A stretch of DNA of 64,000 nucleotides from Candidatus Bathyarchaeia archaeon (GCA_035283685.1 DATETJ010000003.1:842-64841), one strand, 5' to 3'; shown: positions 40,253 to 64,000, numbered from the stretch's first letter. Made by a program: numbers and translations. The notes: generated by a model not told the origin, from the letters alone.

Positions 40253-41434
40253 ATGAGTGCTCAAGAGTTTCTGGATTACATTGCGAAAAGCAAGGCCAAG
40301 AACACTAACAAGTCCTATCGGAATGCTGTCAGAAAATTTGCAGAGTGGTATAAAGGCACGTACTCGGTTGAGCAGCTAAATGAGATTCTGCAAGAGAGAA
40401 AAGACTCAATGCAGGGCAAGGGTCCCCAAGAAAAACGAAGATTCGAAAGGCTAGTCGAGGAATGGCACAGAACACAGCTCAACAGCGGGGCCAGCATCAA
40501 CTCCGCAAGAAACCGCTACGTTGCTGTAACACAGTTTTTCAAGTTCTTTGATCTAGACCTGAACACAGCTGTTATCCCGAGCGAGGTAAAGAAAACCATG
40601 ATCTCAGAGAAAGATTATCCGCTTACGGTTGAAGACCTCAGGGCGATGCATAAAGTTGCTGACCTTCGGGGCAGAACCATTCTGCTTATGGCAAAAGATC
40701 TGGGACAGCGCCTTAGCGACTTCAAAATGATCAAGGTTGAACAGCTGCCGAACTTGGACTCTGAACCGCCAATTCCGTTCAGCATCGAAACGGGTAAAGA
40801 GCATGTTCAGACGAAGGGCTTCTTGTCCGCAGAGACCGTTCAAGCTCTAAAAACCTATCTCGAGACACTACGGAAGAGAAAGAAGCCTTCCCCGTTTCTT
40901 TGGCCGTCGAATGGAAAACACCCGCTTGATGAGGACAGCTTTGGAGTATGGCTGAAGAATTTGGCTGAAAAGGCTGGAATCAAGACCGGTAATCAGAAGT
41001 TGACTTTTCACTGTTTCAGACGTTTGCTCATGCGGGCCGCTATCGAAACAGGCGTTGGCTTAACAGCGGCCAAATTGATGGTTGGAAAAGCTGTTGAAAA
41101 AAGTGACGAAACATACATTGCGAAAGCTAGGCTGGATAAGGTATTCACAAAACTCAGCAAATACCTCAACGTAACGGGTACAGTCGAAGAGAGAAAACCA
41201 CTGCAAGACTTGATAGTTCAACAAGAGAAAGAAATATCGAGCCTCCGGAAACGTATCGAGGCAATTGTGGAGCAAATAAAGGAATACGAAGAGACCTTTG
41301 ATTCAGTTGTAAGAGAATTCGCAACTCTGATTTTGGTGCTTGCTGAACGACTTGGTGATGAAACAACGCTCCGAATGCTGCATGAGGCAAAAGAAAGGCT
41401 TGACCAGAAACTTGTGGAGAAAGTGCAAGAGTGA
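40253..41434 (+). CDS. tyrosine recombinase/integrase with a ~100-aa C-terminal coiled-coil extension
   Basis: N-terminal SAM-like domain (NTNKSYRNAVRKFAEWY). Catalytic pattern: Arg in DLGQRLSDF, HxxR in FHCFRRLL, and Tyr in SDETYIAKA. A heptad-rich tail follows (QEKEISSLRKRIEAIVEQIKEYEE...). Confidence 0.8.
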   Translation: MSAQEFLDYIAKSKAKNTNKSYRNAVRKFAEWYKGTYSVEQLNEILQERKDSMQGKGPQEKRRFERLVEEWHRTQLNSGASINSARNRYVAVTQFFKFFDLDLNTAVIPSEVKKTMISEKDYPLTVEDLRAMHKVADLRGRTILLMAKDLGQRLSDFKMIKVEQLPNLDSEPPIPFSIETGKEHVQTKGFLSAETVQALKTYLETLRKRKKPSPFLWPSNGKHPLDEDSFGVWLKNLAEKAGIKTGNQKLTFHCFRRLLMRAAIETGVGLTAAKLMVGKAVEKSDETYIAKARLDKVFTKLSKYLNVTGTVEERKPLQDLIVQQEKEISSLRKRIEAIVEQIKEYEETFDSVVREFATLILVLAERLGDETTLRMLHEAKERLDQKLVEKVQE

Positions 41435-42568: not shown

Positions 42569-45307
42569 ATGTCAAACGAGGAATTCTCAGGTTCAATGGG
42601 CGAAAAACGCACCAGAGAAAAATACATTGATCCTGAGATATCGAAGAGAAAATGGATTCCAAAATACGTTGAAGAAGAAGTCAATTCCGTCAAGTCCGAT
42701 TTTGTCGACAAAAAACTTGTGTTCTATGATGGCCACCCTGAGAAAGGTGTTGACAGATTCATAGACTATGTATTGCTCGATGAAGATTATTCGGTTTTAG
42801 CCATCATCGAAGCAAAAGATTTTTCCAAAAATGAGGAAAAGGGACGAATTCAAGCTAGAACATACGCAAAAGACATTGAAAAACAAACCACTAAGAAAGT
42901 GCCTATTTTTCTTACGAATGGCAAAATCTGGCGTTTCATTGATGAAGATGGAATAGAGCGCAAGGTCAGTGGTGTCTTTAGTCAAGAGGATCTCAGGCGA
43001 AGAGGAGATCTCTATGGCAAAAAGAGAAATCCATCTGACGCAAAATTTGAATCACGGATAATTGATCGATCTAAGAACAGATACTTGGTTCAGAAGTTAA
43101 GTGAACACTTCTCAGAAGGACATAGAAAAGCTCTTGTTGAGATGGCCACGGGCACTGGGAAAACAAGAGTTGCGATGGCGATTATTGATCGCCTTATAAA
43201 TTCCAATATGGTTCGAAACGCTTTGTTCATTGCCGATCGAACTGCTCTTGTGAACCAGGCAGAATCAAGCGGATTTCAACAGTTTTTTACCGAGCCAGTT
43301 GTAGATCTTCGTAAGGGTTTTTCTACTACTGGGAGATTGTATGTTTCCACAGTGCAAACACTGATGAGTGGCAAGCCAAGGCTAGCTGAACAGTTTAGTC
43401 CTGGTTTTTTTGACATAATTGTTTTTGATGAAGCTCATAGATCCTATTATGACAAGAATAATTTCATTGACGAATATTTCGATGCCATCAAAATAGGACT
43501 TACTGCCACACCTAGAGAACACGAAACAAAAAACACTTACGACCTATTTGGGTGTGAGCAAGGTAAGCCAACAGTAGAGTATTCCTATGATGAAGCCATT
43601 ATCGACAAGATTCTAGTTCCGTACAAAGCGGAAATAATAGACACTGAGAGATTGTCTCTCGGCATCAAAGGCTCGACATTGACGGAAGCTTTGAAGGATC
43701 AACTCAGACGGCAGGAAGTCAATCCAGAGCAAGCCGAATATGCTGGTTCAGATTTTGATCGGGTGTTCATGGACGACAAGACCAATGAAGTGATAATTAG
43801 AGAATTTATGAATAGTTGTTACAAATCTGATGAAGGCAAGCCTTGTAAATCTATATTCTTTTGTGCGAGTCAGAGACACGCCCAACACATGAAAAGAATC
43901 TTTGGAATCATTGTTCCGAATCTCAGCAATGACGTTCAGGTTATTACGTCTGAAATGTATCGGGCAGACGATGAGGTAAAACGGTTTGGCTTAACATCTG
44001 AGCCAAGGATTGCTTTGTCTGTTGGCATGCTAGATACGGGCATAGATGTTCCAGAAGTGTGCAACCTAGTCTTCGTTAAGCCAGTTTTTTCCCATATCCG
44101 GTTCTGGCAAATGGTAGGAAGAGGAACAAGAAACCGAGAAGCCTGTAAGCATCCTATTTGGTTGCCGAATAGAGAGAAGAATGATTTTCTAATTCTTGAT
44201 TTCAAGATAGGAGGGCATTCTAATGTCTATTATCATCAGTTCGAAGAAACAAAAGAAAAATCCGCTGCTAAAGATGTTATTACTCGGATATTCGAAAACA
44301 GAGTGAAACTCTTACAAAAATCCCTTGATGAAGATCAAAAGAAAATCATCTCAAACAAGATTATAGCATCTATAGACGAGTTGGATAAAGAATCCTTCAT
44401 TCTGCGGGAGAAACTGCCAACACTTGAAAAAATAAAAGGAGAATCATTTAATCTCCAGAATTATGTCAATGAACTAATGAGAGAGATAGCACCTCTAATG
44501 ATCTTTAATCAGGGCAGGAATGCGAATATTTCCTCTTTCATACTTCAGACAGAAAAACTGTTTGGCTATGTTTTAGACAGAAAGAAAGACCTGATAGAAA
44601 ACGTCAGACACTATGTTCAGGAGATGTGCGAGAATATTCTCCGAAAAGATAATCTAACGGAAATAAGGAAAAACAGAGACATTATAATACGTGTACTGCA
44701 AGAGGATTTCTGGGAAGACCTAACATTCAATGACGTTGAGTTCTTAGTGGTACAAATCGCACCATTAATGAAATATTATGAACCAGAGCCAACGAAAATC
44801 GTCCAGGTGGATGCTCCTGACATTGTCTTGCTCAGAGAAAAATACCTAATGGAAATCAAGGAAGATGAAGAGTTGAAGAAATTCCTGAACGTAAATCCTA
44901 TTATCAGGAAGATTCGTGATGGTGAAGGAATAACGCCACCTGAATTGGCGGAATTGGAGTTCGAGCTGTCTTCATTGAGACCTGGTCTCACAGTTGATAA
45001 TGTTCAAAAGTATCAGAATATTGATTTTCTGTCGTTTCTGCATAAAATAATGGGTCTTACAGAGAAATCCGATCCAAAAGAACTAATCGAATATGAGTTT
45101 GACCAATATGTCCTTGCCAAAACAGAATACAATTCTAAGCAATTGGCATTTCTAGCCGTGTTGAAAAAGGTCTTTGCCAATAGAAAACGCATCGGACTCC
45201 CGGATCTGGCAAATCCACCTTTATCCAATGAGCGTCCTCTTGATTTTTTCAAGATAGAGGAATTGAAACTCATTATTGAAAAATGTAATCGAATCAAGAT
45301 GCGATAA
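42569..45307 (+). CDS. hsdR: Type I restriction enzyme R subunit (COG4096/EcoEI-like)
   Basis: N-terminal PD-(D/E)xK (IDYVLLDEDYSVLAIIEAKD). SF2 motifs MATGTGKTRVAM, FDEAHRS and LTATP. C-terminal EcoEI-R-like tail. Confidence 0.85.
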   Translation: MSNEEFSGSMGEKRTREKYIDPEISKRKWIPKYVEEEVNSVKSDFVDKKLVFYDGHPEKGVDRFIDYVLLDEDYSVLAIIEAKDFSKNEEKGRIQARTYAKDIEKQTTKKVPIFLTNGKIWRFIDEDGIERKVSGVFSQEDLRRRGDLYGKKRNPSDAKFESRIIDRSKNRYLVQKLSEHFSEGHRKALVEMATGTGKTRVAMAIIDRLINSNMVRNALFIADRTALVNQAESSGFQQFFTEPVVDLRKGFSTTGRLYVSTVQTLMSGKPRLAEQFSPGFFDIIVFDEAHRSYYDKNNFIDEYFDAIKIGLTATPREHETKNTYDLFGCEQGKPTVEYSYDEAIIDKILVPYKAEIIDTERLSLGIKGSTLTEALKDQLRRQEVNPEQAEYAGSDFDRVFMDDKTNEVIIREFMNSCYKSDEGKPCKSIFFCASQRHAQHMKRIFGIIVPNLSNDVQVITSEMYRADDEVKRFGLTSEPRIALSVGMLDTGIDVPEVCNLVFVKPVFSHIRFWQMVGRGTRNREACKHPIWLPNREKNDFLILDFKIGGHSNVYYHQFEETKEKSAAKDVITRIFENRVKLLQKSLDEDQKKIISNKIIASIDELDKESFILREKLPTLEKIKGESFNLQNYVNELMREIAPLMIFNQGRNANISSFILQTEKLFGYVLDRKKDLIENVRHYVQEMCENILRKDNLTEIRKNRDIIIRVLQEDFWEDLTFNDVEFLVVQIAPLMKYYEPEPTKIVQVDAPDIVLLREKYLMEIKEDEELKKFLNVNPIIRKIRDGEGITPPELAELEFELSSLRPGLTVDNVQKYQNIDFLSFLHKIMGLTEKSDPKELIEYEFDQYVLAKTEYNSKQLAFLAVLKKVFANRKRIGLPDLANPPLSNERPLDFFKIEELKLIIEKCNRIKMR

Positions 45308-45308
45308 T

Positions 45309-45330
45309 TATGTAAACCTTGGTTTACATA
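45309..45330. promoter_or_regulatory. perfect 10-bp inverted repeat (putative operator)
   Basis: TATGTAAACC-tt-GGTTTACATA, sitting 3 nt upstream of TATA ACTTATAAG (45334-45342) and about 36 nt upstream of the RHH gene ATG. Confidence 0.5.
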
Positions 45331-45365
45331 AATACTTATAAGTTGAGCTGCACTTAGGCTTACGC

Positions 45366-45743
45366 ATGGAATATCGAACAGTCTCTGCTAAACTTCCGAG
45401 TAATGAACTTACCTTATTCAGAGCACATTGTGAAAAGAAGGGGGTGTCTCCAGCTTACCTGATCAGGGAGTTAATCCTGAAAGAAATGAGAATCACAGTT
45501 CCACATGCGGTCGCAGGCAGAAACATAATCAATTACGATAGAAACAAAGATTCCTTTACATGGTCCGTTGAACTTGACACTGGAAAAACTGTCGAGGTTC
45601 TGAGAAACGTTTCACCAGTTTTTGTTGAAAATCTGAATGACATTATCACACTCGGCATGGGAGAAAGAACGTCTTTTCTTCGAAAGAAGAGAGAAGATTC
45701 TGTCCCTGTTCCAAGTAATATTCTAAGGAGAAAAAGACAATGA
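45366..45743 (+). CDS. ribbon-helix-helix (CopG/Arc-like) protein embedded in the R-M locus
   Basis: VSAKLPSNELTLFRAHCEKKGVSPAYLIRELILKEM follows the beta-alpha-alpha RHH pattern. Its stop overlaps the hsdS start (ATGA). Confidence 0.6.
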   Translation: MEYRTVSAKLPSNELTLFRAHCEKKGVSPAYLIRELILKEMRITVPHAVAGRNIINYDRNKDSFTWSVELDTGKTVEVLRNVSPVFVENLNDIITLGMGERTSFLRKKREDSVPVPSNILRRKRQ

Positions 45744-46930
45744 AACTGCCAAACGGGGGGCAAGAGGTAAAGATCCAAGAAATTGCAAGGGTTGATTCAG
45801 GTCAAGGAGCCCCACAAGGCGAAGAATGGTACGTTGGAAATGAAGTCTTCGTGAAAGCAGGTGATCTGAATTCTCTAACTGAAGGTAAATACGTGGGAGA
45901 GCACTGCAAAAGGGTGAACGATAACGCAGTTACCCAGTACAAGTTAAGAAAATATCCTAAGAACTCTATAGTATTTCCAAAGAGTGGAATGTCTGTTAAA
46001 ACTGACAATATTGCACTACTGAAATATGACTCATATGTAGTCAATCATCTTGCGATAATACAGGTGAACGGCAATGATGAAGATCTGGTAAAATATCTTT
46101 ACTATTCACTGAAAGAGGCCAAAATATCGAAACTATCCCTAAATGATAGCTACCCGTCAATTAGACTTAGCGACATAAAGAGATACAGGGTTGTTATTCC
46201 ACCTCATCCTCAATTGAGAAAAATGGTTGCAATTCTTGAAAGGGCAGATCAACTGAAACAATGGAGAAAGGAATCTGATAAGTTATCTGAGGATTATCCC
46301 AATAGTGTTTTCTTGGAGATGTTTGGAGATCCAAAGAACAATCCAAAACACTGGGATGTTATCAAGATTAACGATGCCATTGAATATTCCCAGTATGGGA
46401 CCTCAGTCAAATCTAATTCAGATGGAAGAGGTTATCCAGTTGTTGGAATGGGCAACATTACATATGATGGTCGTCTTGATCTTTCAAATCACTCTTATGT
46501 AGAACTACCAAGGGAAGAATTCGAGAAACTAAAACTCCACAAGGATGATGTAATTTTCAATAGGACAAATTCCACTGAACTAGTTGGCAAAACTGCATGT
46601 TGGGATATGGATCTTGACGCAGTCCTGGCGTCTTATCTTGTGAAGCTGAAACTAAGAGAGAACATAAACCCTGTATTCTTTACACACTTGCTGAATACCC
46701 GATTCTTCAAGCAACTATTCTCTATACGCTGTAGAAAGGCCGTAAACCAGTCAAATATCAGTCCAACTCTCTTGAAGAAATTCAGTATGTATTTGCCCCC
46801 TGTTGAGCTTCAGAACAAGTTTGCTTCCACAGCCAACCAAGTTGAACAAATGAGAGCTCATCAAAGAAAATCACAAAAACAGATTGATAACCTATTCAAT
46901 GCTTTGGTGCAAAAAGTGTTTAGAGGTTAG
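45740..46930 (+). CDS. hsdS: Type I R-M specificity subunit
   Basis: Two target-recognition halves are separated by conserved helical spacers (LRKMVAILERADQLKQ...; LQNKFASTANQVEQMRAHQRKSQKQIDNLFNALVQKVF). Confidence 0.85.
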   Translation: MKLPNGGQEVKIQEIARVDSGQGAPQGEEWYVGNEVFVKAGDLNSLTEGKYVGEHCKRVNDNAVTQYKLRKYPKNSIVFPKSGMSVKTDNIALLKYDSYVVNHLAIIQVNGNDEDLVKYLYYSLKEAKISKLSLNDSYPSIRLSDIKRYRVVIPPHPQLRKMVAILERADQLKQWRKESDKLSEDYPNSVFLEMFGDPKNNPKHWDVIKINDAIEYSQYGTSVKSNSDGRGYPVVGMGNITYDGRLDLSNHSYVELPREEFEKLKLHKDDVIFNRTNSTELVGKTACWDMDLDAVLASYLVKLKLRENINPVFFTHLLNTRFFKQLFSIRCRKAVNQSNISPTLLKKFSMYLPPVELQNKFASTANQVEQMRAHQRKSQKQIDNLFNALVQKVFRG

Positions 46931-46935
46931 TTAGC

Positions 46936-48423
46936 ATGCTAGATACAGAACTGAAATCGAAAATAAACCAATTATGGGATAAATTTTGGAGCGGAGGAAT
47001 ATCGGATCCTCTTGTTGCCATTACTCAGATGTCGTATCTGATTTTCATGAGGAGACTGGAAGATGAAGATATCGGCAGGGAACAAAATGCTCAACTAAGC
47101 GGAGAGCATTATGAATCCGTCTTCAAGGTTAATGATGATTGCAGGTGGTCGGAATGGACGAATCTTCCTTCTAACCAAATCTTAGACCATGTTAGAGACA
47201 AAGTGTTTCCATTCCTTAGAACACTTGGTGGAGAAGACTCCCTATATGCTCAATATATGAAACATGCTGTGTTCACTATCCCAACGCCTTCCCTTCTTAT
47301 TGAAGCTGTGAAAATAATCAATGATATGCATATCAAGGAACAAAACAGGGATGCAAAAGGAGATCTATACGAATATCTACTTTCAGAATTGAAAACCGCC
47401 GGAAAAAACGGGCAGTTCAGAACACCGAGACACATAATAAAGATGATGGTTTCCCTAGTAGATCCAGAGATCGGCGATAGTATTTGCGATCCTGCTTGTG
47501 GAACTGCGGGTTTCTTGATTGTTGCTTATGAACATATCCTGAGAAATAACACTTCAAAGGAATTCATCAAAACAGATGAGTTAGGAAACGAATACGGGTC
47601 TAAAGGAGATAAACTGGAAAAAAGACAGTGGAATCTGCTGTTAGAACATACTTTCTATGGATATGATTTTGACACGACAATGCTAAGAATATCACTTATG
47701 AACATGATGATGCATGGAATTGAAAGACCTAACATAAGAGAACAGAACACGCTTTCCAGTAGATATAACCAAGAAAAGAATCGCTATGACGTAGTTTTGG
47801 CGAATCCACCATTCAAGGGAAGTATCAACGAATCGGAGATTAGTAGAGAATTTTCAATCACAACTAAGAAGACAGAGATTCTTTTCCTTGAACTGATGTA
47901 CAACATCCTCTCAGGTGGCGGAAGATGTGCAGTTATTGTGCCAGACGGAGTGTTATTCGGTAATTCTAGAGCACACAAAAAGATTAAGGGAAAATTACTT
48001 GAGGAATGTCGCATGGATGCAGTCATATCAATGCCTTCAGGCGTATTCAAACCCTATGCAGGGGTATCTACGGCGGTTCTAGTCTTTACAAAAGGAGAAC
48101 CCACTAAGAGAGTGTGGTTCTATGATATGAAAGCTGACGGCTACAGTCTTGATGATAAGAGAACTTTCCTAGACGGAAAGGGCGATATTCCCGATATATT
48201 GAGTAAATTCAGCAAAAGAGATCTCGAGCGATTCGAAGATAGAAAAGCCAGCTGCTTCTTTGTTCCCATTGAAGAAATAAAGGAAAATGGTTATGACCTA
48301 AGCGTTTCAAGATACAGAGAACTTGAGTACGAAGAAGTTGTCTACGAAAACCCTGAAGTAATCAAACAGAAAATTCTAGAGCTGGAAAACAAGATTGTTG
48401 AAACCTTACGAACCATTTCTTGA
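46936..48423 (+). CDS. hsdM: Type I R-M N6-adenine DNA methyltransferase subunit
   Basis: FRTPRHI, DPACGTAGFL (motif I) and LANPPFKG (motif IV). Confidence 0.9.
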   Translation: MLDTELKSKINQLWDKFWSGGISDPLVAITQMSYLIFMRRLEDEDIGREQNAQLSGEHYESVFKVNDDCRWSEWTNLPSNQILDHVRDKVFPFLRTLGGEDSLYAQYMKHAVFTIPTPSLLIEAVKIINDMHIKEQNRDAKGDLYEYLLSELKTAGKNGQFRTPRHIIKMMVSLVDPEIGDSICDPACGTAGFLIVAYEHILRNNTSKEFIKTDELGNEYGSKGDKLEKRQWNLLLEHTFYGYDFDTTMLRISLMNMMMHGIERPNIREQNTLSSRYNQEKNRYDVVLANPPFKGSINESEISREFSITTKKTEILFLELMYNILSGGGRCAVIVPDGVLFGNSRAHKKIKGKLLEECRMDAVISMPSGVFKPYAGVSTAVLVFTKGEPTKRVWFYDMKADGYSLDDKRTFLDGKGDIPDILSKFSKRDLERFEDRKASCFFVPIEEIKENGYDLSVSRYRELEYEEVVYENPEVIKQKILELENKIVETLRTIS

Positions 48424-51493: not shown

Positions 51494-51550
51494 ATTCTCT
51501 TTTTCTCAAAGACCCTTACTACGAGGCTAGCTCCGTAGTTACTGCTGACG

Positions 51551-53599: not shown

Positions 53600-53735
53600 C
53601 AGAAAAAATGGGCCGCCCGCTGGCGCCCACAACAGACGACAACCCTCCCGTTCTCAAGAGAGCTTTTAGGGGTCTGCGGTCTTCTCTCTGTTCTTTCTCC
53701 AAAAAAGATTTTCGGTTAACCTGAAGGAGAAGACC

Positions 53736-53987: not shown

Positions 53988-53991
53988 AGAG

Positions 53992-54495
53992 GTGAGTCGA
54001 AACGCAGCCGGTGACAAGAAAGACGCAAAAACGCCTCAAGTTGACGTTTCGAAGCTATCAGATTTTGAGATTTCAGTGTTAATTATCGACAGAGACACAG
54101 CCCAGTTCAGGATGAATGCGATTGATGAGTTGCTCGCTAAGGTAGGAGAGGCTAAGGGCTTCACGGAAGCCGCAAAGAAGGAGCTCAATGCGTTGTACAA
54201 AGGTAGCAGGTTGCTCGCAAGGGTTGTTGAAGAATCGAATAGGCTTACCATCCTTCCTGTACAGACATTACAAATCAAAGTCGACGTTCAACCGATCAAG
54301 AATTTTCTAGAACCGAGAATTCTTCAGCCGCTCAAACAAAAGCACGGCATAAACTATCGCCTTGAAGCAAAGGAGGGCTTCCTTTATGCCATTGTCCTTG
54401 AGGGTCAAGTTGATGCCAAAATGAAAGATGAACTTACAGCTCCCGTTTTGTGGGCACTTGAAAAGGCCAGCGAGAAAACCACGCAAAAACAGTGA
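53992..54495 (+). CDS. hypothetical protein
   Basis: The in-frame GTG at 53992 is preceded by AGGAGGTAAAGAG. The track start at 53818 overlaps the previous ORF. The stop overlaps the replicase start (GTGA). Confidence 0.45.
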   Translation: MSRNAAGDKKDAKTPQVDVSKLSDFEISVLIIDRDTAQFRMNAIDELLAKVGEAKGFTEAAKKELNALYKGSRLLARVVEESNRLTILPVQTLQIKVDVQPIKNFLEPRILQPLKQKHGINYRLEAKEGFLYAIVLEGQVDAKMKDELTAPVLWALEKASEKTTQKQ

Positions 54496-57257
54496 GGATT
54501 GCCATGAACACAGAGCGGCAGGCTGAACGAGATATCAAGGGGGTTGCCAGTGAGTATTGGCGACTCGGCTTGAACATTGTGCCGGTCAAAGGAAAAACGC
54601 CTCTAATCAAGTGGGCAGAGCTTCAGTCTTCTCAGCAGTCAAGTGATGATTTCATTAATCTGCCATGGAATCAAGCTGACGGCTTTGCTCTAATAGGTGG
54701 CGCCAAGAGGATTGACGGACTGTACCTGGGTGCCATTGATTACGACGTCAAGAATGTTTCTGAGAATGCGAAGGAGTTGGGAAAGAAGTTCCTGAAAGAC
54801 CTTCTAGCCACAAGGATTGAGAAGACGCCTTCAGGTGGCGAGCACTGGGTTTTCTATTCGAGAAAGCAGCCCGGCACAGTGAGCAGTTTTCACGATTCAC
54901 TAGCTCTCGAGCTTTTAGGGAAGGACAAGCTCATCGTCATGGCTCCCAGCAATGGTTATACTCGTATGAACGACAATGAGCCGACCGTTTTAGAGGACCT
55001 TGAGAGCACGTTTTACGACGGGTTGTACCACATCGGTGTTGGGAAATCGCGAGAGGCTACAAAAACCGCAGCACCTAGGAAAAGGCGCCGGAAAACCAAG
55101 GCGCGCATGTGCTGTGAAGTGGCTCTAGAGAAGGATCGCCGCATTTCTCATTTGATGCGACTGGCCATTGCCAGCGAATACAAGCGGCTCGGTTTGTCTG
55201 AGGTCGATGTTGTTGAGCTTTTTGGACATCAGGCTGACTTTGACCGGGACAAGTGCTTGACGCAAGTGGCAAGCGCGAATCCTGCCAGGACCGCTTCATG
55301 CGTTTCTATCAAGAGTTGGGGTTATTGTCTCCCTGAATGCCCCAAGACGCCCGGCGTTGGAGGTGGCACGAAGGGCGACGAAGAGGGCAGAGAAAGCCAA
55401 GCAGACGCTATGATCAAACTTGCCCAAGCCGAAAGTGTCTCACTGTTTCACGATGAGAGGCGAGAGCCCTACATCCGGATCCGAAAGGGCGAGGCGCTGG
55501 TCACCATGAGGCTTCGAAGCAAGGAGACGAAGACCTGGCTGAGTAGCCTTCTTTGGCGAGACAGAGAGAAAGCGCCCAGCGGCGAGGCATTATCATCAGC
55601 TCTCAACGTCCTTGAAGCTTTGGCAAACGATGGGGAGAAGCATCAGCTTTACAACCGAGTAGCACCAGGAGAAGACGGAAGCATATGGCTAGATCTCTGC
55701 GATGATCAATGGCGTGCAATCCACGTCACTAGGGCAGGCTGGGAGGTCGTGAATCACCCGCCTATCCTCTTCCGCCGCTACAGCCACCAGCAACCAATCC
55801 CCATTCCAATACACGGATCGCTGAAGCATATAGGAAGCATCTTGGACTATGCCAACATCAAGCATTTAGGAGACCAGCTTCTCTATGTCGTGGCTGTCAT
55901 CACAAATCTTATTCCAGGCATCCCGCATGTGGTGATAATTCTTTTCGGACCCCAAGGCAGCGGCAAGACGTGGGCGTTACGGATCATTCGGCTCCTCATC
56001 GACCCTAGCCAACTCGATCTTCTCTCGCTTCCAACGCGGTATGTTGAGCTTGTCCAGAACCTGGACCATAGCTGGTGTTCGTTTTTCGATAACATCGGGA
56101 GCCTTCCACCATGGCAGAGCAACGTGTTCTGTCGAGCCGTCACCGGAGGAGGAGTCAGCAAACGCCAACTCTACACCGATGACGATGACATAATCTACCA
56201 GTACCACCGTTGTGTTGGGCTAACCGACATCAATATCGCCGCGGAGCGAGGAGACCTCCTTCAGCGCAGCGTTCTACTAGGCCTCGAGGCTATACCCAAA
56301 GACCATCGCAAGACGGAGAGCGAGCTCAGAGCCAGGTTCGCCCAAGATCAACCGAAGATTCTTGCAGGTATGTTAGACGTGTTGGTTAAGGCTTTGAATC
56401 TTTATCCCACGGTCAAACTTGAATCACTCAATAGAATGGCGGACTACACTATCTGGGGACACGCGATAACCCAGGCGTTGGGTCTCAAGCCGGAGTGCTT
56501 CATCAATGCATACGAAGAGAATATCAACGCTCAAAATCTGGAAGCCGTTCGCGCCAACCCAATATCTGATGCCCTCATTAGTCTGATGGAGACGAACAAG
56601 CTGACGGGTTGGAGCGGAACCGTTTCCCAACTTTTCAGCGAGCTCGAGGAGAAGGCAAAAGATCTCAAGATTAGCACTCGACAGAAAGCTTGGCCCAAGA
56701 AACCGCACGTGCTGTCGCGAATTCTGAATGAGTTGGCCCCGTCCCTGTCCGCAGTGGGCCTGGAGATTGAAAGAGATAGAACTGGGAGCGCCAGATTAAT
56801 TCACATAAATGCCGTACCAGGCGTCACAAGCGTCGCAAGACAGTCCGACTGGGGCAAGGGCAGTGACTTGAAGGCTTACTTGAGTGACGCTAGTGACGCT
56901 TCGGCAGGTAGTTTTGAAAGTTTATCTGGCAATCAGGTAGAGATGCCAACTCAGCCCAAAAACAAAGAACCGGAAAAACTCGCACAAACACCGTCACAAG
57001 CGTCACAAGCGTCATCGGTCCGAGAATTCTTCGCTTGGCTGCAATCAGAGTTTCAGAAAGGCAACAACCCGATTCTGAGCCTCGTGCCGCTGGACCCAGT
57101 TCAAAAGGGGACTTGCCCTCTTTGCCAGAAGCATGACGTCAATTTGGTTTGGCAGCTTCAGTTTGTTGACGGAAGCCGCTATGATGGACTCTGCGTCGAC
57201 TGTGGGGGCCGAATTCAAGATCTGGTCAGAGAATTCGAGGAGAGAAGTAATGCATGA
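54492..57257 (+). CDS. bifunctional primase-polymerase / SF3-type helicase replicase (pRN1 ORF904-like)
   Basis: Prim-pol N-domain (NIVPVKGKTPLIKWAELQ, AIDYDVK, PSGGEHWVFYS), Walker A ILFGPQGSGKTW and C-terminal Cys pairs (CPLCQKH...CVDCGG). 921 aa. Confidence 0.8.
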   Translation: MRIAMNTERQAERDIKGVASEYWRLGLNIVPVKGKTPLIKWAELQSSQQSSDDFINLPWNQADGFALIGGAKRIDGLYLGAIDYDVKNVSENAKELGKKFLKDLLATRIEKTPSGGEHWVFYSRKQPGTVSSFHDSLALELLGKDKLIVMAPSNGYTRMNDNEPTVLEDLESTFYDGLYHIGVGKSREATKTAAPRKRRRKTKARMCCEVALEKDRRISHLMRLAIASEYKRLGLSEVDVVELFGHQADFDRDKCLTQVASANPARTASCVSIKSWGYCLPECPKTPGVGGGTKGDEEGRESQADAMIKLAQAESVSLFHDERREPYIRIRKGEALVTMRLRSKETKTWLSSLLWRDREKAPSGEALSSALNVLEALANDGEKHQLYNRVAPGEDGSIWLDLCDDQWRAIHVTRAGWEVVNHPPILFRRYSHQQPIPIPIHGSLKHIGSILDYANIKHLGDQLLYVVAVITNLIPGIPHVVIILFGPQGSGKTWALRIIRLLIDPSQLDLLSLPTRYVELVQNLDHSWCSFFDNIGSLPPWQSNVFCRAVTGGGVSKRQLYTDDDDIIYQYHRCVGLTDINIAAERGDLLQRSVLLGLEAIPKDHRKTESELRARFAQDQPKILAGMLDVLVKALNLYPTVKLESLNRMADYTIWGHAITQALGLKPECFINAYEENINAQNLEAVRANPISDALISLMETNKLTGWSGTVSQLFSELEEKAKDLKISTRQKAWPKKPHVLSRILNELAPSLSAVGLEIERDRTGSARLIHINAVPGVTSVARQSDWGKGSDLKAYLSDASDASAGSFESLSGNQVEMPTQPKNKEPEKLAQTPSQASQASSVREFFAWLQSEFQKGNNPILSLVPLDPVQKGTCPLCQKHDVNLVWQLQFVDGSRYDGLCVDCGGRIQDLVREFEERSNA

Positions 57258-57496
57258 ATGAACGAACCCGAAGGATGTTGGAAACTGAGAAACCTAGAAC
57301 CTATGGAAAGTGCCCAATATGCAGCACAGACCTGCCAAGCGGGGACGTATTTCGCACAGCAGTTCTGCAAGGCACACTCATCATTTCCAATGGCAGAATA
57401 TTCCACGCTGCCTGTCTTGAGCATGAAATGGGTCCTGACAGAATGAGAGAGCTACGTCGACGCTTGAGTCTACCTGAACAGGATGTGGGAAAATGA
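57254..57496 (+). CDS. small zinc-binding protein
   Basis: CPICSTD...HAACLEHE. Its ATG overlaps the replicase stop (ATGA). Confidence 0.45.
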   Translation: MNERTRRMLETEKPRTYGKCPICSTDLPSGDVFRTAVLQGTLIISNGRIFHAACLEHEMGPDRMRELRRRLSLPEQDVGK

Positions 57497-57786
57497 AGGT
57501 CAAAAGCAAAGCAGAGATGGCCGCAGATCTCAACCGATTTCTGCTAGTCGAAAACGTGTCCTGGGAGAAATTGCCGAAAAAGGACCTAGCCGAGCAGCTG
57601 AATCGTTTCCTCTTGATCCAAGTGTCTTGGGAACGGTTGTCGCAAAAAGACTTGATCAAGGTCTGCTCGGCGTTTCAGCGGCTTCGGCAAGACGTTGACG
57701 AAATTCTCGCGCTACTGGATCAGGCGCCCTTTTCGACTGAGAGTCCTCAAAAAACAATAGAGAAGATGGTTCAATATGTTATTTAA
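57493..57786 (+). CDS. hypothetical protein with an internal ~21-aa duplication
   Basis: AADLNRFLLVENVSWEKLPKKDL is repeated as AEQLNRFLLIQVSWERLSQKDL. It has an ATGA overlap with the previous gene. Confidence 0.45.
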   Translation: MKVKSKAEMAADLNRFLLVENVSWEKLPKKDLAEQLNRFLLIQVSWERLSQKDLIKVCSAFQRLRQDVDEILALLDQAPFSTESPQKTIEKMVQYVI

Positions 57787-58045
57787 TCGCGTACATACGT
57801 CAAAAGCAGGGTCTCTAGACAACCGATTTGAGACCAAAAGCTCAGCTCTAGCGAGATTAAAAATCTTGACTCTGCATGAACCAAGGCTTGAGAAGGTTCA
57901 TTCATGTTTTTTTTATAGTCATGGAGATGGTAAAACTTGCCAGAAAGTCAGAAAGTAGAGGAGTGTATGAATTCATACACTTTGTCTGAGGAACACGCTA
58001 AACGACTCCTTAAACCCAACGGCAGTAGAAAAAATTGGAGTCTCG

Positions 58046-58270
58046 GTGCTTTGCCGAGTCTCTACTAAAGGCGGCGCTGGAACATACCTCTATCTTCCAC
58101 ACATTTTCTCTGAAACCTACAACATTCTCCCAGGGAGCGTTGTCGAAGTCTACTTCAGAAGGGTTTTCAAAAAGGTCTGGACTGATGAGGAAGAACCAAA
58201 GACGGACATCATAGACCTATCGAAGGAGCGCGGTCGTCCTAGAAAGAAGAAGGGAAAAGAGAATGAATGA
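58046..58270 (+). CDS. AbrB/SpoVT-like small DNA-binding protein
   Basis: GAGTYLYLPHIFSETYNILPGSVVEVYF followed by a basic tail RGRPRKKKGK. GTG start. Confidence 0.4.
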   Translation: MLCRVSTKGGAGTYLYLPHIFSETYNILPGSVVEVYFRRVFKKVWTDEEEPKTDIIDLSKERGRPRKKKGKENE

Positions 58271-58540
58271 ATTTGTTGAGAGTGTCTGAATAAATGCAGA
58301 CGTCACAAGTTGCCCTAAGAAAACAGAAGGAAAAAAGCGATATCCTCGCTGCCCTGGAGCTCAAAGAAGGGCTCAAAGGCTCAGTGGTTTGGGATCGAGT
58401 AAACTGTGGAAAGCATTGCTGCTAGAGATATTGGGAATTCAATGACACTTGGAAACCATTAGACTTTCAAAAGACATTTCTTTCTACTGGTATAGCAAAC
58501 CATAAACCCATTGAAAGAGTAAGTCTGAAAAGGAGTCAGA

Positions 58541-58990
58541 ATGACAAATACTGAAAACTTACATGAATGCTTTCTCAAGGAATGTGAAATTGCTCAAGAC
58601 ATTATTTCAAGAATGGCAAGCAATTCTTTCTTGATAAAGGGATGGGCGATTACGTTGGTTGTAGCATCTCTGCTTATTCAGGGAGTTTCTTATCATCACT
58701 ATGTTGCATTCTTGCCTTGGATTATTTTCTGGATTTATGATGCCTATTTTCTCAGAATGGAAAGACTGTATCGAAAGCTGTATGGTTGGTTGATAAAGAA
58801 CAGAGCTAGTAACAATGATGAATTTTTGTTAGACATGTCTAAAGATAGCTTGGAGAAGAGATTTGGAAAGGAAGTTCCTCATACAGTTCGAGTCATGTTC
58901 TTTAAAACACTTATTGCTTTCTATGGACTGTTGCTAATAATCATTGTTGTTTCGATATATGTTGACCTTAGTGCCATTCAATTTAAGTAA
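58541..58990 (+). CDS. small 3-TM membrane protein (candidate effector partner of the TIR-like gene)
   Basis: TM helices FLIKGWAITLVVASLLIQGV, YVAFLPWIIFWIYDAYFL and TLIAFYGLLLIIIVVSIYV. AAAGGAG lies upstream of the ATG. Confidence 0.6.
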   Translation: MTNTENLHECFLKECEIAQDIISRMASNSFLIKGWAITLVVASLLIQGVSYHHYVAFLPWIIFWIYDAYFLRMERLYRKLYGWLIKNRASNNDEFLLDMSKDSLEKRFGKEVPHTVRVMFFKTLIAFYGLLLIIIVVSIYVDLSAIQFK

Positions 58991-59023
58991 GACTTGAGAC
59001 TGATATTTGAGAAAGTGATATAG

Positions 59024-59515
59024 ATGGTTAGAAGAGTTTTCTTCAGTTTTCATTATGAGAGAGACATTTGGAGAGTTAGTCAGGTCAGAAATAGCTGGGT
59101 AACCAAACCCGACATAGAAGAAGCTGGTTATATCGATAAAGCTGGTTGGGAAAGCCTAGAGAGAGAAGGAGAAGAAGCAATAAAACGTTGGATTATGAGA
59201 CAGTTAGACGGTACTTCGGTTACTGTGGTTCTGATAGGAGGAGAGACATCCAAAAGACGATGGGTGGGTTATGAAATAGACCAGAGTTCTCGCAAAGGAA
59301 ATGGGATGCTTGGAATATACATTCACAACGTAAAAGACCAGAATAGTCTCACAGACACTAAGGGTAGCAATCCATTCGATAATCGGTATATAGAACAGAA
59401 TGGTCAGAAAACATACTTGTCACAATTGTATCCAACATATGATTGGGTCAATGATAATGGCTATGATAACTTTGGTGATTGGGTAGAGAAAGCTGCTCAA
59501 AAGGCTGGAAGATAG
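59024..59515 (+). CDS. TIR-like domain protein (MTH538/DUF1863, ThsB-type)
   Basis: MVRRVFFSFHYERDIWRVSQVRNSW, TSVTVVLIGGETSKRRWVGYEIDQS and GMLGIYIHNVKD are family-typical strings. Confidence 0.75.
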   Translation: MVRRVFFSFHYERDIWRVSQVRNSWVTKPDIEEAGYIDKAGWESLEREGEEAIKRWIMRQLDGTSVTVVLIGGETSKRRWVGYEIDQSSRKGNGMLGIYIHNVKDQNSLTDTKGSNPFDNRYIEQNGQKTYLSQLYPTYDWVNDNGYDNFGDWVEKAAQKAGR

Positions 59516-59662
59516 AAAAAAGAAAGGATTAGAGTTTATTTCTTCTTTATCAAGACTACTTTACCATCTACGCTGGGTGAACTGATGAGCTACTCAAAGC
59601 AAGAGCTGGAGACTATGCTTCGCAAGGTTGACGCTGAAATCTTGGGACAAGAAGACGCCAAG

Positions 59663-59893
59663 GGCGAGTCTTTTTCCACTTCACGGAGAGTATCCTCGTA
59701 GTAAACGACTCGGCGCGCCTCACAGCCTTAGCCCCCTTGGCGGTACATTGCCAACTTGCTTTTAAACAACCTGGCAGCGCGTTGCCAGTGGCCAGCGCCG
59801 GATCCAGACTGAAATCAATGAGTCAGCAGAGACCTGCACGTCGACGTGGCAAGTGATTCATACCGGATTACTACGAGTATCCCAAGACTCGCC
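59663..59893. repeat. large imperfect inverted repeat enclosing short palindromes
   Basis: GGCGAGTCTT 59663-72 pairs with AAGACTCGCC 59884-93. CTCGTAGTA 59695-703 pairs with TACTACGAG 59869-77. Internal palindromes: CTGGCA..TGCCAG 59771-88 and CACGTCGACGTG 59837-48. Confidence 0.75.
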
Positions 59894-60139
59894 TTGAAAC
59901 GTTTCAACAACCCTAAAGCGAGTCCCTCGAGTTCCGCAAACAGGCCCTGATTGGCGCCCCTCAAACGGGTCCTACGAAGCCTTTTGAGGCTCGAATCAGC
60001 AGCAGCGGGATCCTCATAGTAGTTTGGAGGCGCCCTTCCTCTCTCTCCATAGTCCCTGAAGTCTCTGGGCGCTTAACCGCTTTGTGAATGATTGTTCTGG
60101 AAGAATCTTCTATGGACCCGGAAGACTCGTGCCCAGCGA

Positions 60140-60470
60140 GTCCTCAGAGCTTTTGCAAAGCCATTGAAAGCATTTCTAAAGCTTACAAGAGACCTCTTTG
60201 CGGCTTTAGAGTGCCTTTTTCCCTTTTGTGCGGCGTTCACCCTTTATGCAAAGCTTTTCAAAGCTTGGTCGTTTTTGATAGGCAATGGAAGGCTAGAATG
60301 AGCAACAAGACTCTTTGAAAGCCCTTTAAAGCCTTTAGTAGCTTTTGATAGGCAGGTTTCTAATCAACCTTTCAAAACCCTTTAATGTCCTTCAAGGGCG
60401 CCCTTTCGTAGCCTTTGCGCTGACCTTTCAAAGAGCCTTTGTCCTCCTTTGCAGAAGTCTTTAATTGCTT
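60140..60470. repeat. helically phased CCTTT/CTTT(N)AAAG iteron array
   Basis: At least 18 (G/C)CTTT motifs, many spaced 9-12 bp apart (for example 60311, 60322, 60331, 60341; 60401, 60411, 60423, 60435, 60446, 60457). TTTTGATAGGCA occurs twice (60273, 60343). Confidence 0.8.
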
Positions 60471-60578
60471 ATTCCTAACCTAGACTCAGGGCGTTGTCGG
60501 GAGTCGCCGACGAAAAACTAGGGAGTCTCTTGAGTTTCATGGGAAATCTAGGATCTCTCAGTCCCATCAGATACTTAA

Positions 60579-60627
60579 ACAAATTACCGTAATTTGTGCT
60601 ATTATTTGTTAAACCTAATTAACAAAT
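60579..60627. promoter_or_regulatory. two adjacent perfect 9-bp palindromes sharing an ACAAAT half-site, in an AT-rich tract
   Basis: ACAAATTAC-c-GTAATTTGT at 60579-97, and ATTTGTTAA-acctaa-TTAACAAAT at 60604-27. Confidence 0.7.
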
Positions 60628-61088
60628 ATCTTCATATATTTTTTATGTTGATGGTCTTGTGCTGACATTATGAATCTTAACCCATGTAAGACTATGGCAT
60701 TAAGACCATAATGCTAGTTGAGGGATACCACGCTAAACGCCTTTTGGTATTGACCTTAAGTCATGTTGTTATGGCTAGACTGTGCATGACAACAGCTTAA
60801 CGCTGTGCATAAGCGAGACGTTATGGTTAGCGTAGCGTCTCAGAGACGCTGTTAAGAGGCGGTTGAAGCGAAATAAAGCGTCTAGAATTTACCATAGTAG
60901 CGACTCGTTTCTGTTGTCGTGCATACGCACTATAAAGTCTGTCAGCTATCCTAGTAGCGACACAGACAGTTCTACCGAGAAGGCTTTTTGTGTGAAAGGG
61001 TGAACGGATAGCAGAACCGACACAACAGAACGAACTGTGAAAACTGCCGATTGCAGTAATAGGCTTCTCAAACCAACTGCCCCAAGAA

Positions 61089-61388
61089 GTGGGACAAATG
61101 CACTACGTTTCAAGCTGCAAACTATGCGACTACATGATGGATTCTGAGAACGTGCAGTCGATCAAGACCAAGATTCTAGACCACCTGTCCAAGAGCCACA
61201 ATGAAGACGTTGTGGACTTTGCAACAGAGATAACCCTTAATGAATTGTCTGTTTGGGCAACAACGACAAGACTGACAGGCGGAGACGCTGAGATGTTCAG
61301 GCTGCTCAAGCAAGACAAACACTATTATCACGCTATACGCCACAGAAACCAGACCATCAAGAGTCGCCAATCCCCTGTTTTTGGATAG
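61089..61388 (+). CDS. hypothetical protein
   Basis: 99-aa ORF with a GTG start. Contains a CKLCDY...H..SH possible zinc motif. Confidence 0.4.
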   Translation: MGQMHYVSSCKLCDYMMDSENVQSIKTKILDHLSKSHNEDVVDFATEITLNELSVWATTTRLTGGDAEMFRLLKQDKHYYHAIRHRNQTIKSRQSPVFG

Positions 61389-61471
61389 GCAGTTGGGAGA
61401 ATATGCCGTATTCTGCATACAGCGAAATCAGCACACAGAGTTAGACTCCCAAAAGAAAATGGTGATACATT

Positions 61472-61963
61472 TTGGTTCAGCAAACCAAGGCAGTTAAAGC
61501 CGTTGCTCAAACTGAGACTGTTCAGGTGGTTCCTGAAGAGCTGACCCTTCTGCGTGGATTCCGAGATATTGTCCACGAAAGATGGGCTTACATGCTCGGC
61601 AGGAAACTCAAGCAATCAGAGATGACAGAGAAAACAGAGAAAGAGCGCAAGGTCGTTGCGACAGCACGCAAAGACCTTAAAGACAGCATTACGAAGATCA
61701 TTGAGAACGCCGACATGAAAGGCTACGTTGCGAAACAGGAAAGCATCAAGAAAGCAAACGAAGCCCTAGCCGAAGTGGCTAAGCCACTACGTGAGCCAAT
61801 CAGCGTATTGGCGAAGGGTGTCAAATACATGGACACAGTTGCAATTCCTGACGCTCTCAACGAGCTGGGTAAACCTGTTCAGCCGAAGTTCTCTCTGGGC
61901 AAATGGCTTGACGACGCCTTAGTAGCGCAGAAAAACGAGAAGAAAAAGAAGAGGGCTGCATAA
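61472..61963 (+). CDS. hypothetical Lys-rich helical protein
   Basis: 163-aa ORF with a basic tail KNEKKKKRAA. Confidence 0.45.
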   Translation: MVQQTKAVKAVAQTETVQVVPEELTLLRGFRDIVHERWAYMLGRKLKQSEMTEKTEKERKVVATARKDLKDSITKIIENADMKGYVAKQESIKKANEALAEVAKPLREPISVLAKGVKYMDTVAIPDALNELGKPVQPKFSLGKWLDDALVAQKNEKKKKRAA

Positions 61964-61997
61964 GCTCTCTTCTCACAGGTCTTCTTATCATCACCCA

Positions 61998-62038
61998 TTT
62001 TTTCCTTTTGCCATAGTCAGTCGGTTTGCCCGACTGAC
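61998..62038 (+). terminator. oligo-T run plus 9-bp-stem hairpin
   Basis: T6 at 61998-62003, then GTCAGTCGG-tttgc-CCGACTGAC at 62016-38, about 35-75 nt after the stop at 61963. Confidence 0.4.
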
Positions 62039-62130
62039 GGCCTAGGGGAAAGGCTACTCTGCGGTTAGCTGTTCAATTCGCTGGCAGTTAAAGTACGGGT
62101 TTGAGAAAAAGAAAGTGGGCTTCTCCGTAA

Positions 62131-62255
62131 CTTGAGAGCAACATCTCTAATCCATTTCGAAGTGGGGTTGAGAAACTCCAGCAGTTATCTACCGCATCGA
62201 GTATGGATTTTAGATTCGATGTGTTGCCTCTCAAGTGGAGACAAGCCTTTTTTTT
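62131..62255 (+). ncRNA. ~105-nt extended imperfect hairpin followed by a T8 run (candidate small RNA or DNA cruciform)
   Basis: CTTGAGAGCAACA 62131-43 pairs with TGTTGC(C)TCTCAAG 62222-35. Inner pairs: AATCCAT/ATGGATT, TCGA/TCGA and TGGGG/CTCCA. T8 at 62248-55. Confidence 0.4.
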
Positions 62256-62746
62256 AAACCCTTATGGCGTTTGCCAGCGGGAGCACTGAATCGAAGTGCA
62301 AAGAAAAGGGCGAGAAAGCCCGTTTTAGCCTATACAATGAAACCTACTCACAAGAGGGTTTCGATGACGTAGCAAGTCGCATGTTTCTAGGATAACAAGT
62401 CCAACCGCAAGGTTGGATGGAAACACCCCAGCGACGCAGAGATAAGACGATACCCGCAGAATTTTACAGAAGCCTGGCTACACCACTACTCTTCCTTGCA
62501 GGCTTATGCCTGCTCAATAGAGCAAGATGGCGGGAAACTACGCTGAGGATACATTACAGTGAAGCGTAGGCTAGGAAGCTCAGGCCACTACGAAACCCTC
62601 TAGAACTACACTGTTTCACCTGTGGGATGGTAGGCGGCGAATGCAGCGAGCCCGCTGCAGCCGAACCCCAGCGTTCTCGGGCACGAGAGCTTGAGCCGAC
62701 CTTGCCCACAGGGCAGTAGGAAATCTGGGGTGCGTGAACTTGTGGT

Positions 62747-63418
62747 TTGAAAGATACTCACGTTTTCCCTCTTTCTTCTTTTGGGGGTGTAAAATTGGCT
62801 GAACTACAGTTATTGCTGGATCGCATTAAACCGAAACCGCAGAGAAAAATCAGGTACAAGCGAAGCAACGACGAGCCTGGTCCAGAAATGATGGCTCTTC
62901 TAACAAGGATGAATGACCGCAGGTGGAAAGCTGAAGCACTTGAGTTGCTGCGGGATTTCATACGCGTTACTGCATGGGACGTTTGGATGGCTCGACACAT
63001 CAGAGAATGCGAGCTATGCTACGCAGAAACCACGATTTCAATAGAAAGATACCGTTCAAGAGGGCTGCCTTGGTTTCTTTTCCAAGATGATGAATGGGAA
63101 GACGAAGACGACAGCCCTCTAGAAAGCCCTCTAGAAGTCCACCAACGATTCAAAGAATTCCCACGGATCAGAGATTACTACATTCCTTCGTACTGGGAAG
63201 AAGCAGAAGCTTTCAGAGCAGGACGACCAATATCCCACTCGGGCACAGATGACTTCATCAAAGCAAGGCTGGCATGGGGAGAAAGAATCAGTAGGCAAAA
63301 CTTGGTTCTCGCCTGCAACTTCTACAAACGACTGAATTCATGGAACCTGACCGGTGGTCGACCAAGCTACGATTTCGAAGAATGGTTTTTTCCAGGAGCG
63401 CCAATAATGCCAATCTAG
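62747..63418 (+). CDS. hypothetical protein
   Basis: 223-aa ORF with a TTG start. An internal MMALLTRMND start is possible. Confidence 0.45.
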   Translation: MKDTHVFPLSSFGGVKLAELQLLLDRIKPKPQRKIRYKRSNDEPGPEMMALLTRMNDRRWKAEALELLRDFIRVTAWDVWMARHIRECELCYAETTISIERYRSRGLPWFLFQDDEWEDEDDSPLESPLEVHQRFKEFPRIRDYYIPSYWEEAEAFRAGRPISHSGTDDFIKARLAWGERISRQNLVLACNFYKRLNSWNLTGGRPSYDFEEWFFPGAPIMPI

Positions 63419-63473
63419 TTCCTTTCTTTTTCGGGGTGAATTCCAACTGAATCATCTGGAACGAAGGCAGCTT

Positions 63474-63758
63474 TTGAAAATCTGCGATAAATACGAGATA
63501 GACCCACAGGAAATCGATAATGAAATTTCATACTGGGAGAACAAAAGCCACCTAATGAGCATAGTCAGAGAGTTGCGGCTAAGCGGCGACGTGTTTGCGA
63601 TAGAAAATTGGGCAGAAAGATACAATCAATACCGAGAGCAGCATCCTATCGAGTATTATCTATCAAGCCAAACAGCTCTGCCCAAGCCCTCAGAAATTGC
63701 ACCAGTGACAGATGGAAAATTCTCGCTCAGGGAATTTATAGCTCGTCAAGCAGGCTGA
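63474..63758 (+). CDS. hypothetical protein
   Basis: 94-aa ORF with a TTG start. Confidence 0.4.
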   Translation: MKICDKYEIDPQEIDNEISYWENKSHLMSIVRELRLSGDVFAIENWAERYNQYREQHPIEYYLSSQTALPKPSEIAPVTDGKFSLREFIARQAG

Positions 63759-63763
63759 ACCCG

Positions 63764-64000
63764 ATGACAGAAGAAATACCAGAAACAATAGTCTTCATCA
63801 TCAAGCATTCCAGAAGAATGCTTTTGGAGGCTTTTTCAGAATGGCTGGAAACCAACAAGGAAGCCATAGGCGAGAAATCGTACGACAGCTTGAACAGCAC
63901 TCGCCGCGGGGGCGATTGGAGAGATTGCGACACGATAGGCGGAATCATGGGCACCGCAATGTGGCTGTTCAACATGGTAGCCAATCTGGGAGTGCTTGCT
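63764..64000 (+). CDS. hypothetical protein, 5' fragment (runs off the window)
   Basis: ATG at 63764, 5 nt after the previous stop. The frame is open to the window end (MTEEIPETIVFIIKHSRRMLLEAFSEWLETNKEAIGEK...). Preferred over the antisense track ORF 63736..63984. Confidence 0.4.
   Translation, partial: MTEEIPETIVFIIKHSRRMLLEAFSEWLETNKEAIGEKSYDSLNSTRRGGDWRDCDTIGGIMGTAMWLFNMVANLGVLA

Follow-up and report, generated by a model that had tools for sequence, protein, structure and literature searches.

The gene pair at positions 58541-59515 of the window, by which we mean the whole 64,000-nucleotide stretch of Candidatus Bathyarchaeia DNA that was analysed, is very probably a type V Thoeris operon (thsF-thsB) carried as cargo of an integrated mobile element. 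Judged from its sequence, the pair is a real antiviral module made of a TIR enzyme and a small membrane protein. The system has been described before, and what is found here is a copy of it in an archaeon and not a new kind of defence. Type V Thoeris, validated so far only in Bacillus, would by this assignment also be carried on an integrated element in the Bathyarchaeia, an uncultured archaeal lineage. A single gene family would then stand behind three labels, namely PADLOC PDC-M50A, 'ThsF/DUF2270' and the 'hypothetical protein' label given to thousands of genes, among them genes of more than 70 E. coli and Klebsiella plasmids. The value of the assignment lies in annotation and in the choice of archaeal test cases, and it opens no new question.

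The gene pair and its family

The features of the pair were as follows.

58528..58535, + strand: Shine-Dalgarno-like AAAAGGAG, 5 nt 5' of the thsF-like ATG (read from the sequence)
58541..58990, + strand: thsF-like effector gene (PADLOC PDC-M50A), 149-aa ORF
59024..59515, + strand: thsB gene for a ThsB-type TIR protein, predicted sensor and signal synthase, 163-aa ORF
59273..59275, + strand: GAA codon of Glu84, the predicted catalytic glutamate (motif RRWVGYEI), from alignment with BcThsB E85
59535..59548, + strand: T-rich stretch TTTATTTCTTCTTT, 20 nt 3' of the thsB stop (read from the sequence)

The two genes were on the same strand with an intergenic gap of 33 nt, and the ORF coordinates, gap and peptide strings quoted in an earlier note on this DNA were all found in the sequence. 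The effector gene preceded the TIR gene here, and either order was found across the effector family. From its position AAAAGGAG would function as a ribosome-binding site, and TTTATTTCTTCTTT could terminate the operon of two genes as an archaeal oligo-T signal. A scan for bacterial-type terminators gave none at the TTTATTTCTTCTTT site in this archaeal host; bacterial promoter and terminator scans were uninformative in general, the models being bacterial and the host archaeal. An Rfam search of 58200-61300 returned no family.

The 163-aa protein matched Pfam PF08937 (ThsB_TIR, E=6e-25, residues 6-104) and the PADLOC models ThsB (PDLC00431, 5e-69) and PDC-M50B (PDLC04688, 1.9e-65, full length). 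A phmmer search against the PDB returned ThsB of B. cereus MSX-D12 (6LHY, 9B7D) at E=1e-34, entry 9B7D being titled 'cyclic ADP-D-ribose synthase ThsB1', and Glu84 of the window TIR aligned with Glu85 of this protein. The residues E84, Y83 and R22 were invariant in 37 of the 37 TIR relatives aligned from the loci studied, and the E85Q substitution in ThsB has been reported to abolish Thoeris defence (bioRxiv 10.1101/2021.01.06.425286). The earlier identification of a ThsB-type TIR with a candidate catalytic Glu was borne out by the Pfam match, the alignment with BcThsB and the invariance of E84.

An AlphaFold2 model of the 149-aa protein, made with 37 homologues (pLDDT 84, pTM 0.72), consisted of helices at residues 3-45 (an N-terminal helix running into TM1), 52-88 (TM2 and a cytoplasmic extension) and 122-148 (TM3), with two short helices within the 89-121 loop. 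The transmembrane helices lay at approximately 31-47, 54-71 and 122-141 and the N-terminal helix was amphipathic, in agreement with the three hydrophobic helices, amphipathic N-terminus and soluble loop of about 50 aa described previously. Since the 72-121 loop contained 11 K/R, the N-terminus and the loop are predicted to be cytoplasmic. Residues E14, R24, K33, D67, E74, Y77, W83, N87 and R88 were invariant in the effector family alignment.

The 149-aa protein matched PADLOC PDC-M50A over its full length (PDLC04686, E=3.3e-35) and no family in Pfam or NCBIfam. The exact protein was present in a Candidatus Bathyarchaeia MAG, where its sole annotation was 'hypothetical protein', and cluster look-ups for family members gave the same label and no other. 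The family comprised 4,416 clusters at 50% identity (E<=1e-3), and its matches extended to more than 511 bacterial and archaeal species genomes. Extra domains in the C-terminal extensions of some family members were considered and rejected, the extensions being low-complexity tails.

The linkage of this family to TIR genes was followed through 80 species-level loci, which include methanogens, ANME-1, Asgard archaea (Borrarchaeum), Thaumarchaeota and haloarchaea. A close homologue of the window TIR was found directly downstream on the same strand in 43 of the 80, typically after a gap of 17-80 nt, and divergent TIRs (Pfam ThsB_TIR or TIR_2) took the same position in other loci. When a panel of 26 TIR seeds was used and complete TIR ORFs within 600 nt were counted, 45 loci had such an ORF at 600 nt or less from the effector gene, and four further loci had TIR copies cut by contig ends or frameshifts. 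Effector and TIR were therefore adjacent in 49 of 76 informative loci, divergent and truncated TIR copies included and a TIR within 600 nt being taken as adjacent, and chance can hardly account for the pairing. The effector stood without an adjacent TIR in 24 of the 76 (about 32%).

The partner TIRs came from at least four unrelated subfamilies and many loci held two different TIR genes. The combination of one effector family with several TIR subfamilies is the mark of a shared effector with interchangeable sensor-synthases, and the most plausible role for the 149-aa protein, as the conserved operon partner of TIR genes, is that of a minimal membrane effector.

Several arrangements within this set of loci were recorded. 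Two TIR genes of different subfamilies flanked one ThsF-like gene, as multi-sensor arrays, in L010, L012, L033, L040, L050, L051, L061, L035, L073 and L029, of which L061 (Sporomusa rhizae) had TIR genes on both sides of the ThsF-like gene and a third TIR protein of 635 aa. Orphan ThsF-like genes with no TIR in the fetched flanks included L002, L005, L024, L031, L074, L079 and L092, among others, and orphans adjoined housekeeping-looking genes (DnaK, GPI, pilin, UvrA-like, DnaJ); such orphans may act in trans, answer to other signals or be relics. A ThsB-like remnant of the first ~20 codons lay 3' of the ThsF-like gene in L042 (6430-6489) and L066 (3752-3811) and was followed in both by unrelated ORFs, and these two loci appear from their sequence to be degraded or interrupted systems.

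The same operon was present on plasmids of Halorhabdus (pHTIA, L081), E. coli and Campylobacter. A wider count placed the ThsF-like and TIR operon on at least 127 plasmids, including 40 from Klebsiella and 36 from E. coli, many of them conjugative (for example L082, CP091408.1, 9588-10865), and the plasmid effector was labelled 'hypothetical protein' or occasionally 'DUF3899'.

Relation to type V Thoeris and PDC-M50

Thoeris types V-XI have been defined by Yirmiya et al. (bioRxiv 10.64898/2025.12.03.692087), with type V consisting of ThsB and ThsF. Briefly, ThsF was annotated there as 'DUF2270' with three TM helices and was modelled with AF3 as a channel of seven identical protomers, with positively charged pockets between them. 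Type V systems of B. thuringiensis DAR 81934 and Bacillus sp. 1NLA3E protected B. subtilis, and both validated ThsBs made 3'cADPR. In the B. thuringiensis (Bt) system 3'cADPR alone led to effector-dependent toxicity, while added 3'cADPR failed to activate one of the two validated systems (all from bioRxiv 10.64898/2025.12.03.692087), and the signal is for this reason not certain. The features of type V found in the window were a ThsB-type TIR with its Glu, an adjacent effector gene and a small effector with three TM helices.

The adjacent genes also matched the paired PADLOC-DB v2 models PDC-M50A and PDC-M50B, as PDC-M50 is defined. PDC-M entries are multi-gene 'phage defence candidates' that were obtained from RefSeq genomes by guilt by embedding and are untested, and the one mention of PDC-M50 found in the text and supplements assigns it to a cassette and gives no mechanism (Payne et al., bioRxiv 10.1101/2024.01.29.577857). 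The earlier note had proposed signalling from a TIR to a minimal membrane effector in a novel two-gene system. The first part is well supported by the present results. The second does not hold, since the pair already matches PDC-M50A (3e-35) and PDC-M50B (2e-65), and the module also very probably corresponds to type V, validated in Bacillus (bioRxiv 10.64898/2025.12.03.692087).

The equation with ThsF rests on the neighbours of the relatives of the validated ThsBs (the validated ThsF being IMG 2624526260 of B. thuringiensis DAR 81934 and IMG 2506742001 of Bacillus sp. 1NLA3E). A tblastn search of plasmids with the validated Bt and 1NLA3E ThsBs gave relatives whose organism distribution mirrored that of the membrane-protein family. 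When the effectors of the validated strains themselves were sought, Bacillus sp. 1NLA3E was not named among the 120 best matches, and P0501 proved to be a metagenome genome with no relation to them and with an orphan copy. ThsB relatives adjoined members of the effector family on Priestia plasmids (L085, L087) and in a B. thuringiensis genome (L089), the relatives concerned being 48.6% identical to the DAR 81934 ThsB and 66.7% and 75% identical to the 1NLA3E ThsB. The effectors beside these ThsB relatives were linked to the window family by BLASTP (8e-24). An hhalign comparison of the window clade (A1) with the Bacillus-type group (A3) gave 100% probability and E=2.6e-40, PADLOC PDLC04686 was matched by both groups with Bacillus/Priestia members at about 1e-50, and the window clade was ~35% identical to the Bacillus-type effectors. 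The window TIR was in addition 67% identical (E=1e-80) to IMG 2711338702, which is labelled 'DUF2270 - Type V' in Table S1 (bioRxiv 10.64898/2025.12.03.692087). On these alignments and neighbourhoods PDC-M50A, ThsF and the window 149-aa protein are very probably one family.

Direct membership in Pfam DUF2270 (PF10028) was rejected at threshold, and only remote signals were seen. The 149-aa protein had no match to PF10028 at E<=1, and among 75 relatives in the window clade there was one match (E=0.06) and none at the gathering threshold. In the Bacillus-type subgroup 12 of 50 members matched PF10028 below threshold (best E=0.0024), and the ThsF-like neighbours of the validated-type ThsBs were likewise below the gathering threshold. 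A Foldseek search against BFVD, a set of viral structures, gave a 'DUF2270 domain-containing protein' as the match of highest TM score (TMq 0.60). The relation of the effector family to DUF2270 is at most remote. The TIR clusters in the preprint were defined with hhsearch against Pfam v32 (bioRxiv 10.64898/2025.12.03.692087, methods), and its DUF2270 label would be explained if the effector clusters were labelled likewise. In the A3 alignment 15 of 50 members also matched Pfam DUF3278 below threshold (best E=7e-4), and small 3-TM proteins may on this sign form a broader superfamily.

About a third of the effector genes lacked a TIR neighbour and the window clade was not recognisably DUF2270, and for these reasons the ThsF-like family might be broader than the type V effector, with the archaeal module forming a distinct Thoeris subtype with its own ligand; we regard this as rather improbable. 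The orphan ThsF-like genes could in such a case be effectors that take their signal in trans, from distant TIRs or from synthases other than TIRs, and the ligand of the window clade, whose membrane is built of archaeal ether lipids, may be another ADPR derivative. Were a distinct subtype confirmed, the channel mechanism would be independent of membrane chemistry.

Three other explanations compete with type V, each of them unlikely. The first keeps the signalling from TIR to membrane effector and assigns the 149-aa protein to a separate, unvalidated '3TM' class or to a family unrelated to DUF2270, so that the pair would be a Thoeris-like type that is predicted only (PDC-M50) and never tested. 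The absence of any window-clade member at the Pfam DUF2270 threshold fits this assignment, as do the distinct and untested '3TM' effector label in Table S1 and the authors' own description of the effector labels, taken from cluster representatives, as noisy (bioRxiv 10.64898/2025.12.03.692087), and the link to validated ThsF runs via the ThsB neighbours. However, the 3TM rows examined in Table S1 go with other TIR clusters (2734565194, 2556961318), and TIRs 67% identical to the window TIR carry the 'DUF2270 - Type V' label. Unambiguous members of the effector family moreover adjoin the closest relatives that were found for both validated ThsBs, and the Bacillus-type subgroup gives recurrent DUF2270 matches below threshold. 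A separate class is unlikely and type V remains the preferred assignment.

The second explanation reverses the roles or removes the signalling, with the TIR as an NAD+-depleting effector and the membrane protein as its sensor, anchor or regulator, or with the pair as a toxin-antitoxin-like addiction module. Some bacterial TIR proteins are indeed NADase effectors in CBASS, Pycsar and pAgo contexts (bioRxiv 10.64898/2025.12.03.692087), the pair sits on a mobile element, and added 3'cADPR drew no response from one validated type V system. Against this, the window TIR falls in the ThsB clade, the solved member of which is a signal synthase (PDB 9B7D), and at least four unrelated TIR subfamilies supply partners for the membrane protein, which often has two TIR genes beside it, a pattern typical of one effector served by several sensors. 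The toxicity of 3'cADPR alone in the validated Bt system depends on the effector, and reversed roles are very unlikely when set beside a type V operon in which ThsB signals to ThsF.

The mobile element around the pair

The recognisable genes on the 5' side of the pair were as follows.

40253..41434, + strand: tyrosine recombinase (Phage_integrase, PF00589, E=2.5e-11)
42569..48423, + strand: type I restriction-modification system in a low-GC block (PADLOC and Pfam)
42569-45307, + strand: HsdR (PADLOC REase_I, 2.5e-105)
45740-46930, + strand: HsdS (PADLOC Specificity_I, 2.7e-70)
46936-48423, + strand: HsdM (PADLOC MTase_I, 5.9e-177)

One boundary of the integrated element on which the pair is carried may lie at the tyrosine recombinase. 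The type I restriction-modification block had a GC content of 36-41% and included a 125-aa ORF between HsdR and HsdS; with HsdR, HsdS and HsdM all present at 42569-48423 it is the complete R-M system that had been placed on the same element. Two minus-strand ORFs (48624-50367) in the low-GC block 3' of the R-M genes had no family match.

A 449-aa protein (51551-52900) had a C-terminal Schlafen/AlbA_2 domain (PF04326, 3e-24) and no PADLOC match. The Schlafen/AlbA_2 domain is common in defence islands. The 921-aa ORF at 54492-57257 had no family match; by eye it contained a P-loop (GPQGSGKT) and a primase-polymerase-like N-terminus and looks primase/helicase-like. The 74-aa ORF upstream of the pair (58046-58270) had been called AbrB, a label that could not be confirmed, the ORF having no AbrB or other Pfam or PADLOC match. 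Almost none of the ORFs around the pair (50939-64000) had a Pfam match, and the element may be an uncharacterised archaeal plasmid or provirus.

Within the ORF-poor interval 59516-61088, positions 60150-60450 contained degenerate direct repeats of the form CTTTnAAAGC / CCTTTAAAGCC, ~10 nt apart, in two families (D1 and D2) of 4-5 copies each, as well as a 25-nt inverted repeat (60297-60321 / 60425-60449) with no Rfam match. The repeat cluster looks iteron-like and could be an origin or a regulator-binding array of the mobile element. The same element was seen in several groundwater or sediment metagenomes (loci L093-L096).

The GC content of the pair was 35-40% against 45-55% in the flanks, both ORFs were intact with every invariant residue kept, and at least four metagenome contigs had an identical copy of the pair amid the same neighbouring genes. 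The third explanation, a chance adjacency or decaying cargo with no current function in the Bathyarchaeia archaeon, could draw on the atypically low GC and on L042 and L066, where only a 20-aa TIR remnant is left, but is most improbable given two intact ORFs with all invariant residues, identical copies on at least four contigs from different metagenomes and neighbours kept in 49 of 76 loci.

Predicted mechanism and comparison with known Thoeris systems

In the mechanism that we propose for this thsF-thsB pair, ThsB would sense virus infection, as is expected from its family, and its Glu84 would convert NAD+ into a cADPR isomer. This is most likely 3'cADPR because the protein is close to BcThsB, which makes 3'cADPR, and because of the data on type V ThsBs. 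The signal would then bind the cytoplasmic face of the ThsF-like protein, formed by the N-terminal helix and the K/R-rich loop between TM2 and TM3. Residues R24, K33, R78, N87, R88 and R107 were conserved on this predicted face, and R24, K33, R78, R88 and R107 would fit positively charged pockets between protomers. The ThsF-like protein is predicted to form a homo-oligomeric ring or channel, through which the ligand would open or disrupt the membrane, and the infected cell would be arrested or killed before virus release. The present analysis established the gene structure, domain identity, catalytic residue, family membership, TIR adjacency and mobile-element context, and the ring or channel and its toxicity are drawn from AF3 models and toxicity assays of the Bacillus homologues (bioRxiv 10.64898/2025.12.03.692087).

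Of the other Thoeris types, type I is defined by a SIR2-SLOG effector, and no SIR2/SLOG gene was found among the ORFs scanned in 38.3-63.4 kb. The scan covered ORFs of at least 100 aa and three shorter ones and returned no SIR2, SLOG, Macro or SLATT domain, in line with the earlier statement that no SIR2, SLOG or Macro gene is nearby. The type II effector combines TM helices with a Macro domain; the 149-aa protein had no Macro match and is too short to hold a Macro domain besides its three TM helices. Having neither SIR2-SLOG nor Macro, the system belongs to neither type I nor type II, as the earlier note had argued.

In comparison with type I of B. cereus MSX-D12, the TIR here is closely related to BcThsB (E=1e-34), shares its catalytic Glu and probably makes the same class of signal (3'cADPR). 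The effectors differ, being a SIR2-SLOG ThsA there and a 149-aa membrane protein here, and for this reason the outcome here would be membrane damage rather than the NAD+ depletion of type I.

Types II (TIR and 2TM-Macro ThsC) and VII (TIR and SLATT ThsH) share with the pair the logic of a TIR signal acting on an oligomerising membrane effector. Their signals are His-ADPR and canonical cADPR, and the effector here differs from theirs in having no Macro or significant SLATT match and three TM helices, not two. SLATT membership, which had been suggested for the effector, was rejected for the 149-aa protein on its lack of a SLATT match and its three TM helices. A single one of 37 relatives matched SLATT_5, at E=0.004, no other SLATT Pfam match was seen, and the combination of TIR and SLATT is a separate type VII.

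Type V has in common with the pair a two-gene operon of a ThsB TIR and a ~135-150-aa protein with three TM helices, and both occur in defence or mobile contexts in bacteria and archaea. They differ in host, which is an uncultured member of the Bathyarchaeia here, whereas type V was validated with Bacillus systems in B. subtilis. The window clade also differs in having no DUF2270 Pfam match and is known here from its genes and a monomer model. PDC-M50 is the same pair of gene families, its A and B models being matched over their full length by the two adjacent genes of the window.
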